Part shown: positions 47,101-53,100 of the stretch, piece by piece
How positions within the stretch are numbered: position 1 is the stretch's first letter
How the letters are laid out: every line of letters starts with the position of its first letter
NCBI RefSeq assembly: GCF_016903815.1
Contig: NZ_CP069973.1
Strand: one strand, 5' to 3'
Length of the DNA stretch: 64,000 bases
Origin: Escherichia coli
Lineage (GTDB): Bacteria; Pseudomonadota; Gammaproteobacteria; Enterobacterales; Enterobacteriaceae
Position numbers: made by a program

Positions 47101-50100
47101 AATTCTGTTATTGCGTCCTCTGTAAGCGGAGCATTTCTAATGGTTTCGCTTGCTGTGATTGCTTTTATCGACAATCCATATATTGCTATTGTACTTATCT
47201 CCATTGGTGGTTTTGGTCATCAGATAATTTCCTGCATGTTAAGTGCCCTGGTCGTTGAATCTTTTGATAAGGGGCAGATGGCCACTGTTAATGGAATGCG
47301 TGGTTCAGCCGCATGGATTGCCAGCTTTTTGTTCTCACTGATTATTGGCGTTACTGCTGACAAAATAGGCTTTAACCCGCTATTTATCGCCATGGGATTT
47401 TTTGATCTTATTGGTGCTTTTTTTCTGGTTACTTTTATTGCAGAACGTCGCAAAAAACGCACCTGAGGGAGTATGTGGAGATGAAAACATTAAAAAACTG
47501 GAAACTACAAAATCAGTCAGCCCATCATATAGAGCTATTAGTTGATGGTCAGCATTCTCTTTGCCTGTATATACTCGAAGAAAATATGTTCCGGGTTCTA
47601 TTAAAACGGAAGGGGGTTTTGTCGCTGGACCGAACCTGGAGCATTGCTCCGGAAAAGGATGTCCCGTGGGAAGGGCGTCATCGCGAAGATATTAGCGGTT
47701 TTTCACTGCCGACCTGGAACATGGAGCAGAATGATGAATTACTGACAATCACGACCAGTTCATTACGCGTAATTATTCACAAGCCTTTATGGCTTGAATG
47801 GCATTATAAGGATAATGCTGGTCAGTGGCAGGAACTTGTTAATGATCGCCCTACCAGTGCTTATCTGATAAACGCTCATGGTGATGGTGTTGCACACTAT
47901 CAAAGTCGACGTAATGACGAGCGTTTTTATGGACTTGGTGATAAATCCGGGGATCTGCAACGCACAGGAAAACGCTATGAAATGCGGAACCTGGACGCAA
48001 TGGGATATAATGCAGTAAGTACAGACCCTCTTTATAAACATATTCCATTTACAATTACTCACCGTAGCGATATTAGCTTTGGATTATTTTATGATAACCT
48101 CAGCAATAGTTGGCTGGATTTAGGTAATGAAATAGATAATTATCATACAACTTACCGCCGTTGGCAGGCTGAGGCGGGAGATATTGATTATTATCTTTTC
48201 ACTGGCAGATGTGTACTTGATATCACCAAAGCCTTTGTTCGTTTGACGGGGAAAACACTCTTCGGTCCAAAATGGAGTCTTGGGTACAGCGGTTCCACGA
48301 TGCACTATACAGATGCACCGGATGCTCAGAATCAATTGATGCAGTTTATTCGTCTTTGTAAGGAACATGCTATTCCATGTGATTCTTTCCAGCTATCTTC
48401 TGGTTATACTTCTATTAATGGTAAACGCTACGTATTCAACTGGAATTACGACAAAGTTCCACACCCTAAAATGATGAGTCAGGAGTTTCATAATGCAGGG
48501 ATACACCTGGCCGCTAATATAAAACCATGTTTATTGCAGGATCATCCTCGCTATAACGAAGTAGCAGAACAAGAGCTCTTTATTCGTGACTCTGAATACA
48601 ACGTCCCGGAACGCTCCAGCTTCTGGGATGATGAGGGTTCTCATCTGGACTTTACGAACCCACAAACAGTCGCATGGTGGCAGGAAGGTGTAACCACACA
48701 ACTACTTGAAATGGGAATTGATTCCACCTGGAATGATAACAATGAGTTTGAAGTATGGGATGGGGAAGCGCGCTGTCATGGTTTTGGCAAAGAAATCGCC
48801 ATTAAACACATTCGGCCAGTAATGCCTCTTTTAATGTGCAGAGCATCTATGGAAGCACAGCAAAAATTTGCACCGAACAAACGACCATATTTGATTTCCC
48901 GCTCTGGATGCGCCGGATTGCAGCGTTATGTTCAGACATGGAGTGGGGACAACCGAACTAACTGGGATACCCTTCGATACAACACCCGCATGGGGCTGGG
49001 AATGAGCCTCTCAGGATTGTATAACATTGGTCATGATGTCGGTGGTTTTTCTGGTGATAAGCCTGATCCAGAATTATTTGTTCGTTGGGTTCAGAACGGT
49101 GTTATGCACCCCCGATTTACGATCCACTCGTGGAATGATGATCATACTGTCAATGAACCATGGATGTATCCGGAAGTAACACCCGCGATTCGTAGTGCAA
49201 TTGAGTTACGTTATCGTCTTATGCCTTATTTATATACATTATTGTGGCAGGCACATGCCGATGATGAGCCAATATTACGTCCAACCTTCCTTGATCATGA
49301 GCACGATGTTCAGACATTTGAAGAATGTGATGATTTTATGCTGGGACGCGATATTCTGGTTGCAAGTGTCGTGGAAGCAGGGCAACGACAACGACGAGTA
49401 TGGTTACCCGACAACAAAACAGGATGGTACGACTTTTACAATGGCGAATGGTTCTGTGGTGGTCAATGGATAACAATCGACGCGCCACTGGAAAAACTAC
49501 CATTATTAGTACGTGCAGGTGCAGGTATTCCTCTTAGTGAACGTATAACATACGTGAGTGAAGCGGAAGATAATCATCGTAAATTGAAATTATTCCCAAT
49601 TAAAGGAACGGGTAAATCCACCGGACTTCTGTTTGAAGATGATGGCGAAACTTGGGGATATACTGAAGGTAATGCTCTGTGGCTTGAATGGGAGCTGGAC
49701 TGCACAGCCACTACAATTGAGTTAAGAATAAACACTCATGGAGATTATCGCCCTGCATGGGAAACATTGAAAGTGATAATTCCTCAGGGAGAAAGTCGTC
49801 AACTACTGATTAACGGCATTGAGGCTTATGAATGGAATATGAACCTATCCTGTAATGATTAATTTATTGTAGAGGGTAAATCATGGCCAAATAAAGGCAC
49901 TGTAAGAGTAAAACTTATAGTGCCTTTATATACAAGCCAGATTATAACGCCATGCAATGAAACGCCCCCATGCATACGTAGATTAACTATCTCTTACCAT
50001 TTTACATATCCGAAAGAATATGTTTTAACAGAAAGGTAAAACATGAGCGATAATAAAAAAGAGCACTTCCACAATGTAATAATAAGATGGGTTATTATTT

Positions 50101-53100
50101 TCGCCACTATTGAATACATATATTTATTTATAAAGTTTCTCTAAAGTCTTAATACCCATCCCATCAAAAAACAATGCGGGGTTGTTAAAATAACAACATA
50201 ACACTGTTTTCATGAGAATAGTAAAGCGTTTATTCAAAACCGTTTATAGCAACCCCATAAACCCAACATAGCAATTGAGTTTAAAAAGGAGATTTCATTG
50301 TCCCCTATCAATTAAACTTCATGTTTTTTAGTTTGTTTATAAAACAACATCATATCTCCTATAAAATACTCAGCAGTATTAAACCACCTTATCTTTAACC
50401 AAACTATTTATTCCGCAAGCCCACACTTATGGATATTTACCGTTGGTAATGACTCCAACTTACTGATAGTGTTTTATGTTCAGATAATGCCCGATGACCT
50501 TGTCATGCAGCTCCACCGATTTTGAGAACGACAGTGACTTCCGTCCCAGCCTTGCCAGATGTTGTCTCAGATTCAGATTATGTCGCTCAATGCGCTGAGT
50601 GTAACGCTTGCTGATAACGTGCAGCTTTCCCTTCAGGCGTGATTCATACAGCGGCCAGCCATCCGTCATCCATACCACGACCTCAAAGGCCGACAGCAGG
50701 CTCAGAAGACGCTCCAGTGTGGCCAGAGTGCGTTCACCGAAGACGTGCGCCACAACCGTCCTCCGTATCCTGTCATACGCGTAAAACAGCCAGCGCTGAC
50801 GTGATTTAGCACCGACGTAGCCCCACTGTTCGTCCATTTCAGCGCAGACAATCACATCACTGCCCGGTTGTATGCGCGAGGTTACCGACTGCGGCCTGAG
50901 TTTTTTAAGTGACGTAAAACCGTGTTGAGGCCAACGCCCATAATGCGTGCACTGGCGCGACATCCGACGCCATTCATGGCCATATCAATGATTTTCTGGT
51001 GCGTACCGGGCTGAGAGGCGGTGTAAGTGAACTGTAGTTGCCATGTTTTACGGCAATGAGAGCAGAGATAGCGCTGATGTCCGGCAGTGCTTTTGCCGTT
51101 ACGCACCACGCCTTCAGTAGCGGAGCAGGAAGGACATCTGATGGAAATGGAAGCCACGCAAGCACCTTAAAATCACCATCATACACTAAATCAGTAAGTT
51201 GGCAGCATTACCAAATCTGGAGCTACCACGCGTTGTTCTGGCTGGCGATAGGGATGTTGGGTATTGCGATGATTTGCCTGCTGTTTATTAAAGATATTTA
51301 GCTCACCAGTCTGGGCTAAGAAAAATCGGCGTGGCGCAAACAGAGCCATCCTCGCCATTTTTGCTATCATGCCTGCATACATAAACGACAAAACAGTATG
51401 CAGAGGGAAAAATGGGTTCCACCAGAAAGGGGATGCTGAACGTTCTGATTGCCGCCGTGTTGTGGGGAAGTTCAGGGGTCTGCGCGCAATACATCATGGA
51501 GCAAAGCCAGATGTCGTCGCAGTTTTTGACTATGACGCGTTTGATATTCGCCGGTTTGATTCTGCTGACGCTGTCATTTGTTCATGGCGATAAAATCTTT
51601 TCTATTATTAACAATCACAAAGATGCCATTAGTCTGCTGATTTTTTCCGTGGTTGGCGCGCTAACCGTACAGCTCACCTTTTTACTGACCATTGAAAAAT
51701 CGAATGCTGCCACGGCAACGGTGCTGCAATTCCTCTCACCGACGATTATCGTCGCCTGGTTCTCACTGGTGCGTAAATCCCGCCCGGGCATTCTGGTTTT
51801 TTGCGCTATTTTGACATCGCTGGTCGGGACTTTTTTACTGGTGACACACGGTAATCCGACGTCATTATCAATCTCTCCGGCCGCGTTATTCTGGGGCATT
51901 GCCTCGGCATTTGCTGCGGCATTCTATACCACCTATCCCTCAACGCTAATTGCCCGCTATGGCACGTTGCCTGTCGTCGGCTGGAGTATGCTGATCGGCG
52001 GTCTGATTCTGTTGCCTTTTTATGCCAGACAAGGGACAAACTTTGTCGTTAACGGCAGTTTGATTCTGGCGTTTTTTTATTTGGTGGTCATTGGTACGTC
52101 CCTGACATTTAGTCTGTACCTGAAAGGAGCACAATTAATTGGCGGGCCAAAAGCCAGCATTTTGAGCTGTGCAGAGCCATTAAGTAGCGCGCTGCTCTCT
52201 TTGCTGTTGCTGGGGATCACATTCACATTACCGGACTGGCTGGGCACACTGCTGATTCTGTCATCGGTGATTTTGATTTCAATGGATTCCCGTCGCCGCG
52301 CCAGAAAAATAAATCGTCCGGCGCGGGATGAGTGAGAATTACCAGCCAGGCACCGCGCCACCGTTAAAGATGGTTTCTGCCGCTTTAGCGACTTCGGATG
52401 ATTGATAAGATTGCAGAAATTCCTTCACGTTTTCTGCATTCTTATTATCTTCCCGTGCTACCAGAATATTCACATACGGCGAATTCTTATCTTCAATAAA
52501 TACGCTGTCGTGCACCGGAGAAAGCCCGGTCTGCTGAATGTAAGTGGTGCTGATAATCGCCACATCAACTTTGGGATCATCCAGTACGCGCGGGAGCTGC
52601 GCCCCCTCGAGTTCCATAATCTGCAAATGACGAGGATTCTCGGTTATATCCAGCGCGGTAGGTAGTAACCCTTTTCCCTCTTTCAGAGTAATTAGCTTCT
52701 CTTTTTGCAACAGTAAAAGCGCGCGACCAAGGTTGGTCGGGTCGTTGGGGATCGCCACTGTCGCGCCTTCTTTTATTTGCGCCACGGTTTTGATTTTTTT
52801 GGAATAACCCGCCATGGGGAAGACAAACGTATTTCCCACCGCTACCAGTTTATAACCATGCGCCTGATTATCTTGTTCAAGAAAGGGTCGATGCTGGAAG
52901 ACGTTCGCATCAAGCTCGCCATGATTTGTCGCATCGTTCGGTAGCAACGAACCGCTAAATCCTACCAATTCAACATCGAGGCCATATTTCTCTTTTGCCA
53001 CCTTTTTAGCGACTTCCGCGACATCTTGTTCTGCGCCATTAATAACGCCCACTTTAATGTGCTTTTCATCGCTGCTGCTCTGGTCGCAACCTGCCAGCAG

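Follow-up and report, generated by a model that had tools for sequence, protein, structure and literature searches.

The open reading frame (ORF) at positions 50043-50144 on the plus strand of the window, by which we mean the entire 64,000-nucleotide stretch of the Escherichia coli contig NZ_CP069973.1 analysed here, is very likely a genuine protein-coding gene, whose product is a paralogue of the small membrane protein YkgR that has diverged from it and is carried horizontally. In a mobile module of four genes it occupies the final position, after those for a LacI regulator, an MFS transporter and a GH31 hydrolase. The gene is already known, since it is annotated in public genomes, and the finding is in this sense an ordinary one. 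As RefSeq naming exists and the YkgR protein of E. coli K-12 already serves as a model substrate, the value for discovery is small. The value is rather corrective, in that the ORF is in all likelihood real and not noise, represents a paralogous copy distinct from the true ykgR, and lies in a tail which is an IS1-truncated spacer.

Family assignment of the 33-codon open reading frame

The original prediction had described a short hydrophobic ORF within an AT-rich tail of about 580 bp. Its coordinates and sequence are exactly as claimed, the translation being MSDNKKEHFHNVIIRWVIIFATIEYIYLFIKFL. The proposed Shine-Dalgarno-like motif AAAGG is present at 50032-50036, as part of an AAAGGT (50032-50037, plus strand) located 5-6 nt 5' of the ATG. 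Mean Kyte-Doolittle hydropathy over 19 residues is maximal at residues 12-30, where it reaches 2.05, consistent with the single transmembrane helix that had been predicted, and the hydropathy profile is the same as that of K-12 YkgR. No convincing sigma-70 promoter was found 5' of the ORF, the sole plus-strand match in the tail overlapping the start codon.

The tail itself (49863-50444), which extends from the GH31 stop codon to IS1, is indeed AT-rich: its GC content is 31.6%, whereas the islet genes have 43.1% and the window as a whole 49.2%. Likewise, it lacks ORFs of 60 aa or more, as had been stated: those found measure 41, 39, 38, 37, 33, 25 and 25 aa. Four ORFs of at least 33 aa were observed, against 2.0 +/- 1.3 in shuffled sequences, and the length of the 33-codon ORF by itself is not beyond chance. 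The ORF stands above chance because of its match to the YkgR family, and none of the remaining short ORFs of the tail matched any family in the family search.

The curated model of this family, NCBIfam NF041474, matches the ORF over its full length (positions 1-33 of 33) with 65.9 bits and an E value of 1.7e-18, the curated cut-off being 40 bits. An independent YkgR profile, built from other family members only and leaving out the ORF and its close relative, assigned it 43.3 bits (E 2.3e-12); the next best among 1,880 ORFs of the window reached 6.5 bits, and the top score among 52,119 ORFs of shuffled tails was 10.2 bits. In BLASTP, 12 of 32 aligned residues are identical to K-12 YkgR (E 3e-7); the overall identity of the two proteins is 36%. 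The peptide also has the length and layout of the family, with 33 aa arranged as a short charged N-terminus followed by one hydrophobic helix, and contains the C-terminal motif E-Y-x-Y-L-F; across eight diverse members of the family, the invariant columns are M1, I14, V17, E24, Y25, Y27 and L28. In a scan of NCBIfam at E values up to 10, YkgR was the sole family matching the ORF. A Pfam search gave no match, but K-12 YkgR is likewise unmatched there, PF28062 being present in precomputed tables only, and a search of PHROGs gave no match either. The proposed reading as a small membrane protein is therefore borne out by a full-length member of the YkgR family, which PGAP labels as YkgR in 329 of 330 complete E. 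coli carrier genomes.

In RefSeq, the product is named "small membrane protein YkgR" (WP_001313396.1), and the identical protein is present on at least 1,000 contigs. Canonical ykgR, which was found in 5,070 of 5,426 genomes, is located between ykgM and fdeC/eaeH in K-12, whereas the ORF described here lies in a selC island. Both genes coexist in strain REL606, where the canonical copy occupies 283321-283422 and the module copy 3783904-3784005. Because of this coexistence, the ORF represents a paralogue and not the equivalog implied by its RefSeq name. The two copies in one genome receive the same name from PGAP. A literature search found no paper that mentions the copy at 50043-50144.

Coding-type conservation in a diverged module

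A second copy of the LacI-MFS-GH31 module, referred to as L007, is 83% identical in DNA and retains the YkgR-like ORF. The similarity covers 44836-50137, from LacI through the YkgR-like stop, and ends at the stop codon. Within the ORF, 20 of 34 codons are identical, five carry silent changes and nine conservative replacements, and a 9-nt indel is in frame. The differences are distributed over the three codon positions as 8/2/11, a skew which by itself is marginal. The segment EYIYLFIKF is the same in both copies despite three silent substitutions. The AAAGGT 5' of the ATG is retained within a spacer that has otherwise diverged; the region upstream of the ORF shows poor conservation between the two modules, and neither non-coding flank is conserved.

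Within E. coli, the sequence of the ORF is nearly invariant, and therefore selection is judged from one diverged comparison only. The reading frame, whose disruption in close homologues the original prediction had regarded as evidence against it, is kept in L007 and intact in 329 of the 330 genomes; the start codon is lost in strain CFT073 (ATG to ATA), which additionally carries the replacement Y27N. In one further strain, an IS1 is inserted within the ORF. As these cases illustrate, the YkgR-like gene is dispensable. Another sequence, P0005, was considered as a diverged relative and rejected: each of its 446 differences over 2,274 nt replaces a C by a T, and not a single C is left unconverted, so that it is a bisulfite-sequencing artefact.

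Genomic context and the IS1-truncated spacer

The three genes preceding the ORF (44833-49862, the GH31 ORF ending at 49862) encode the LacI-family regulator, on the minus strand, the MFS transporter and the GH31 hydrolase of a sugar module, as assigned from ORFs and PGAP names; the Pfam domains of the L007 orthologues back these calls. The complete four-gene module is found in selC islands and on plasmids, where it adjoins ssb, trbC and a relaxase gene. In 80 other Enterobacterales species, whose contigs were scanned starting from the GH31 side, the LacI-MFS-GH31 cluster occurs without a YkgR-like ORF within 5 kb. The YkgR-like gene is therefore an addition to a three-gene sugar cluster.

The 300 bp following the ORF (50145-50444) correspond, by comparison with REL606, to the first part of a 365-bp spacer between the ykgR-like gene and ssb. 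In REL606 this spacer runs on to ssb without a break, and the plasmids pEA26_3 and pCD90-1-1 display the same gene order through ssb; here it is cut 66 bp short of ssb by IS1. This 768-bp element (50445-51212, with InsA/InsB on the minus strand) forms the end of the islet and has the terminal inverted repeats GGTAATGACTCCAAC... and ...GGCAGCATTACC. Its flanks, TTTACCGTT and AAATCTGGA, show no target-site duplication, and it abuts a setC remnant. Through this AT-rich spacer the element formerly continued to its ssb gene; IS1 cut it and removed all sequence as far as setC. The tail, which is kept at 99-100% identity in 326-330 complete E. coli genomes, does not represent the decayed DNA that had been suggested: it is intergenic DNA of a mobile element, intact up to the point where IS1 interrupts it.

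Directly 3' of the GH31 stop, a hairpin with a 16-bp stem and a 7-nt loop is located at 49891-49929 (plus strand), and the segment 49863-50050 folds with -51.8 kcal/mol (z = -5.9). L007 retains the core stem of the hairpin, in which a G:C pair is replaced by a compensatory A:U pair at one place. A terminator scan of the tail did not call this hairpin; it lacks a U-tract and therefore probably either stabilises the operon end or terminates weakly. An Frpo-like single-strand promoter, as in the leading region of plasmids, was also considered for the ykgR-ssb spacer and rejected, the folds being unremarkable (z = -0.7 and -1.7).

Alternative explanations

The original prediction had regarded a chance ORF in decayed DNA as equally likely. 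An ORF that arose by chance, or that survives as a dead relic while the AT-rich DNA decays, would fit the number of ORFs of this length expected in the tail, the unsuccessful promoter search and the lost start codon of CFT073. However, profile scores well beyond the shuffled null, a frame and motif kept at 83% DNA identity, an ORF intact in nearly all carrier genomes and a tail that is an intact spacer together refute this parity, and we consider such an origin very improbable. A type I toxin, i.e., a membrane-damaging peptide silenced by a cis-encoded antisense RNA, is just as hard to credit. In its favour are the small size and hydrophobicity of the peptide, the SD-like site, the location on mobile DNA and the cleavage of Hok toxins, like that of K-12 YkgR, by RseP. 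Yet an Rfam search of both strands at E values up to 1 matched no family, YkgR is the only family match of the peptide, and the flanks where an antitoxin RNA would need to be encoded are not conserved in L007. The search for an antisense sRNA promoter, which had been proposed as a check, yielded three promoter-like sites in the tail as compared to 3.5 expected; judged by sequence, none is suitably placed for an overlapping antisense RNA, the single minus-strand site being directed away from the ORF. Furthermore, K-12 YkgR has been over-produced from pBAD24 and detected, with toxicity not mentioned in the accessible part of that report; the severe growth inhibition described in the RseP study concerns HokA. 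The suggested resemblance to type I toxins (Hok, Ldr, Ibs, TisB, ShoB) is therefore limited to similar size and hydrophobicity, whereas an antisense RNA, a long structured leader and a match to a toxin family were not detected for the ORF.

Also unlikely is a peptide that serves as a dedicated accessory of the sugar module. It would modulate the neighbouring MFS transporter by binding to it, and its gene would share a transcript with the module if transcription reads through the hairpin 3' of GH31. AcrZ with AcrB and SgrT with PtsG are precedents for accessory peptides of this kind. The ORF lies on the same strand directly 3' of GH31 in all E. coli-type copies (the chromosome, two plasmids and L007), the similarity between the diverged modules covers precisely the region from LacI to the YkgR-like stop, and CFT073 is damaged in both GH31 and the YkgR-like ORF. 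In addition, the missing U-tract makes read-through past the GH31 hairpin plausible. A dedicated function is opposed by the 80 species which have the cluster but no YkgR-like ORF nearby, and by the unrelated contexts of other family members, including ykgM/fdeC in K-12, a DNA-metabolism block in phage SSU5, and plasmid maintenance genes.

Proposed properties of the peptide

As a divergent paralogue of YkgR, the ORF product would be a single-pass inner-membrane protein. K-12 YkgR is made as a protein and located in the inner membrane, has been used as a model substrate to study how such proteins are inserted into the membrane (SRP) and turned over (RseP), and is, together with Hok proteins, among the RseP substrates; in the literature, the family is viewed as a stress-related small membrane protein and not as a toxin. 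By analogy, the peptide, with a putative layout of a short charged N-terminus, a helix of about 20 residues and E24-Y25-x-Y27-L28-F29 near the C-terminus, may be inserted post-translationally, with SRP/FtsY delivering it to SecYEG or YidC, and RseP may be responsible for its turnover. Its helix could bind a larger membrane protein and tune its activity, as other small membrane proteins do, and the conserved membrane-embedded Glu may provide the specific contact with such a partner. Our guess is thus a partner-binding mechanism, the peptide being neither an enzyme nor a toxin. AcrZ, MgrB, SgrT, MgtS and CydX are single-helix peptides of 30-50 aa which bind a larger membrane protein; they are unrelated in sequence to the ORF and offer an analogy of mechanism.

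Comparison with other YkgR-family genes

With K-12 YkgR (b4671), the ORF product shares its length of 33 aa, the charged N-terminus with one hydrophobic helix, and the motif A-x-[IV]-E-Y-x-Y-L-F-x-x-F. In contrast, similarity at the DNA level is absent: blastn with the ORF DNA did not recover the canonical ykgR copies, and the ykgR locus has no real similarity. The loci differ as well, ykgM-fdeC for the K-12 gene as compared to a selC island or plasmid module for the ORF, and a promoter-like element and a 5' hairpin which the SSU5 copy has in common with that of K-12 are missing upstream of the ORF. Copies on phage-plasmids and plasmids are also 33 aa long, 39-45% identical, and lone small genes on mobile DNA. 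They differ in their neighbours, which are a block of Dam, exonuclease, DHFR and ThyA genes or plasmid maintenance genes, and in having their own hairpin terminators; none adjoins a GH31 module. The carriers of these copies are Salmonella phage SSU5, SSU5-like contigs of about 110 kb and a ParM/StbB plasmid, and the SSU5 copy is unannotated.

That YkgR-like peptides constitute a family of mobile-element cargo genes, targeting a host membrane protein via the conserved membrane-embedded Glu-Tyr motif to the advantage of the element, is a speculative and rather doubtful proposition. If true, possible roles would be entry exclusion or the control of a transporter, e.g., the adjacent MFS permease, and a widespread three-gene sugar cluster would have become the specific mobile version of E. 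coli by gaining the islet copy as a functional addition. The recurrence of YkgR-family genes on mobile elements could aid the search for the function of the family. Their carriers include the phage-plasmid SSU5, conjugative or mobilisable plasmids, a selC island, and a variable region of K-12.

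A known kind of small gene downstream of GH31

The 582-bp tail at 49863-50444, between the GH31 hydrolase stop codon (49862) and an intact 768-bp IS1 on the minus strand (50445-51212), has a GC content of 31.6%; the islet genes have 43.1% and the window as a whole 49.2%. Its longest ORF has 41 aa, and the original prediction of an AT-rich stretch at these coordinates with no ORF of 60 aa or more was accurate. The 33-codon plus-strand ORF at 50043-50144, here called the islet copy, is preceded by AAAGG(T) at 50032-50037 and translates to MSDNKKEHFHNVIIRWVIIFATIEYIYLFIKFL, with a maximal mean hydropathy of 2.05 over residues 12-30. 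Its length by itself proves nothing, because shuffled tails yield 2.0 +/- 1.3 ORFs of at least 33 aa, compared with the four observed.

The islet copy matches the NCBIfam model NF041474 ("small membrane protein YkgR") at 65.9 bits (E 1.7e-18; cut-off 40 bits) across all 33 profile positions, which bears out its proposed likeness to small membrane proteins. Since the training set of NF041474 may include this sequence, an independent profile was built from six other family members, excluding the islet copy and its nearest relative. This profile scores the islet copy at 43.3 bits (E 2.3e-12); the runner-up among 1,880 window ORFs reaches 6.5 bits, and the top score among 52,119 ORFs from 3,000 tail shuffles is 10.2 bits. 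BLASTP against K-12 YkgR (MKENKVQQISHKLINIVVFVAIVEYAYLFLHFY) gives 12/32 identities (E 3e-7), and M1, I14, V17, E24, Y25, Y27 and L28 are common to eight diverse family members. Pfam returned no match to the islet copy, a silence that is uninformative because K-12 YkgR is also unmatched there, the YkgR model being absent from the copy used.

A diverged copy of the module (L007; GCA_002519925.1, NOPB01000030.1) carries LacI, MFS and GH31 genes and a 36-aa YkgR-like ORF in the same order as the window. DNA similarity to window 44836-50137 is 83% and extends from the end of the LacI gene to the stop codon of the YkgR-like ORF. Within this ORF, 20 of 34 codons are identical, with five silent changes and nine conservative replacements (N/K, F/M, V/M, I/L, R/K, I/V, T/A, I/L, L/F), and the frame is intact across a 9-nt indel. 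EYIYLFIKF is identical despite three silent substitutions, and AAAGGT is kept ahead of the ATG, the spacer upstream being badly diverged. Differences fall at codon positions 1, 2 and 3 in the ratio 8/2/11, a skew that is marginal by itself and, like all the coding-conservation evidence, comes from this one comparison. Taken together on sequence grounds, the L007 comparison and the profile scores (43.3 bits vs a shuffle maximum of 10.2) exclude a chance ORF, which had been considered an equally likely explanation. The ORF is thus real, but it belongs to a known and already annotated kind of gene. Three points stand out: a single gene name hides two paralogues, the tail was truncated by IS1, and genes of the family recur on mobile elements.

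The L007 contig is labelled E. coli, and its module is flanked by DUF3100 and M20 peptidase genes (8300-11000); these flanks have no megablast match among 5,426 complete E. coli genomes, and the contig could represent rare accessory DNA or stem from another organism. An apparent second relative, protein P0005 on a Logan contig (L006, SRR27475582), was rejected: it differs from the window at 446 sites in 2,274 nt, each of them a C read as T, and no C is left unconverted, which identifies the contig as bisulfite-treated E. coli DNA. Its proteins, including the false YkgR variant, serve as cluster representatives in a protein database.

Between GH31 and the ORF, a 16-bp hairpin at 49891-49929 (fold of 49863-50050, z = -5.9) has a core that L007 retains, one pair having changed in a compensatory way. 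It lacks a U-tract, and a terminator scan of the tail made no call. Promoter-like sites in the tail are not commoner than in shuffles, and the single plus-strand match overlaps the ORF start codon; the ORF may be expressed from a promoter of its own or by read-through from GH31.

A paralogue under a shared name

The tail is found at 99-100% identity in 330 of the 5,426 complete genomes. In 329 of these the PGAP annotation of the ORF reads "ykgR: small membrane protein YkgR" (WP_001313396.1), and the identical protein occurs under this name on at least 1,000 contigs of a large protein collection; no mention of the islet copy was found in the literature searched. Conservation among islet carriers, suggested as a check by the original prediction, was confirmed, the ORF being kept in 329/330 genomes and in frame in L007.

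The canonical ykgR of K-12 lies between ykgM and eaeH/fdeC and is present in 5,070/5,426 genomes. The islet copy is 36% identical to its protein and shows no DNA similarity to its locus, and REL606 (NC_012967.1) holds both, the canonical gene at 283321-283422 and the islet copy at 3783904-3784005. The islet copy is therefore a paralogue and not K-12 ykgR, and the RefSeq name conceals this: in REL606, PGAP assigns the gene name ykgR and one product name to proteins that are 36% identical. Evidently, the NF041474 "equivalog" model covers paralogues.

Damaged copies also occur. In CFT073 the ORF (L004 6044-6145) has its start changed from ATG to ATA and a Y27N replacement within the conserved motif, which are two of the three positions at which its 582-bp tail differs from the window; PGAP still calls it ykgR, with an ATA start (WP_349813756.1), and the GH31 gene (L004 3481-5863) is frameshifted. 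The only truncated copy among the 330 genomes, in NZ_CP080085.1, has a different IS1 junction inside the ORF after codon 23 (L005 4114-4130, equivalent to window 50113), with the ORF end and all DNA up to setC gone.

The tail as a truncated mobile-element spacer

The selC island reads integrase (upstream), TPR protein, LacI-family regulator (minus strand), MFS transporter, GH31, YkgR-like gene, IS1, setC remnant, yicL and nlpA. REL606 lacks IS1 at this site, and its tail runs on for 66 bp more to an ssb gene. Plasmids pEA26_3 (E. albertii) and pCD90-1-1 (E. coli; with an additional topoisomerase gene upstream) carry DsbC-family, LacI, MFS, GH31, YkgR-like, ssb, trbC, relaxase and mobA genes. 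From this continuation and gene order it follows that 50145-50444 corresponds to the initial 300 bp of a mobile element's 365-bp ykgR-ssb spacer, cut short by IS1, rather than to the decayed DNA considered in the original prediction. Plasmid leading-region ssb genes can follow single-strand promoters, and for this reason the single-strand fold of the spacer was examined; nothing unusual was seen, and its short ORFs have no family match.

The window IS1 has no target-site duplication (left flank TTTACCGTT, right flank AAATCTGGA) and directly adjoins the setC remnant. Its left junction is common to the window, EC958 and CFT073, and the DNA to the right of IS1 differs in EC958 and CFT073 (a BREX system; decarboxylase and antiporter genes); the exact IS1-setC junction of the window occurs in about 240 complete genomes. 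This pattern fits IS1-mediated adjacent deletions and suggests that such deletions have repeatedly trimmed the selC island. Further right, a 165-aa ORF downstream of yicS (53962-54459, plus strand) matches SycD/LcrH type III secretion chaperones (113.8 bits vs a 104.8 cut-off; SicA below cut-off), which points to a type III secretion-related cluster right of nlpA-yicS.

Possible mode of action

According to the literature, K-12 YkgR is a 33-aa protein that can be detected, is counted among the small membrane proteins and is described as stress-related or stationary-phase induced. It is reported to contact SRP after release from the ribosome and to be cleaved in vivo and in vitro by RseP, an intramembrane protease; the model protein YohP is inserted via SecYEG or YidC after SRP contact, and neither YohP nor YkgR enters liposomes spontaneously. 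By homology, the islet copy would share the biogenesis of K-12 YkgR. The example of other small membrane proteins leads us to conjecture that it may act through binding a larger membrane protein, in which the invariant membrane-embedded Glu could be a likely contact.

A possible partner is the adjacent MFS transporter, to which the peptide might be dedicated: the position of the ORF is constant, and GH31 and the ORF have decayed together in CFT073. However, when GH31 relatives were scanned in one genome per species and the best 80 loci taken (73-85% protein identity; Kluyvera, Citrobacter, Enterobacter, Klebsiella, Kosakonia, Buttiauxella, Serratia, Pectobacterium and others), none of the 80 had a YkgR-like ORF within 5 kb, and DNA similarity to the window finished before or near the GH31 stop. 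This places the peptide outside the core of the LacI-MFS-GH31 system, its gene being an addition to the module version now moving among E. coli islands and plasmids. A dedicated partnership is made less likely, too, by the unrelated contexts in which other family members sit. That the peptide is instead a type I toxin, a resemblance noted in the original prediction, is highly improbable, since there is no match to Rfam or to a toxin family, the non-coding flanks are not conserved against L007, and the suggested search of the tail found no suitable antisense promoter. K-12 YkgR has been over-produced, and toxicity is not mentioned in the available part of that account.

Other members of the family

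YkgR-family genes recur on mobile elements. Salmonella phage SSU5 (JQ965645.1) carries an unannotated 33-aa ORF (P0026; MNSEKLESVGKKLITGVIAVAVVEYAYLLIRFF; record 76289-76387, L105 2501-2602) between SSU5_086 (exonuclease) and SSU5_087, on the strand opposite to its neighbours, and many SSU5-like contigs, about 110 kb long, encode the same protein. Protein P0011 has an equivalent location in related elements, P0024 lies among ParM/StbB, ProQ-like and Tn3 genes, and P0016 beside IS fragments, a SPATE autotransporter or an Fe-ADH gene. A promoter-like GTTATTTATA element is common to the K-12, SSU5 and P0011 copies. About 62-77 nt upstream of the P0011 copy (L094 about 4924-4939) is a perfect match to the CRP consensus, TGTGATTGAGTTCACA, and K-12 ykgR has TGTGATACATGTCAAA at a similar place. 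The K-12 and SSU5 copies both have CGTTATTTATATA and, after it, a short GC hairpin in the leader. All of these elements are missing from the islet copy. In IncK2/Z-typed plasmids of about 130 kb, a PerC-family regulator gene and yiaY flank a weaker YkgR-like ORF (43% identity; pRHB36-C07_2, L089 5001-5084) that is unannotated there.
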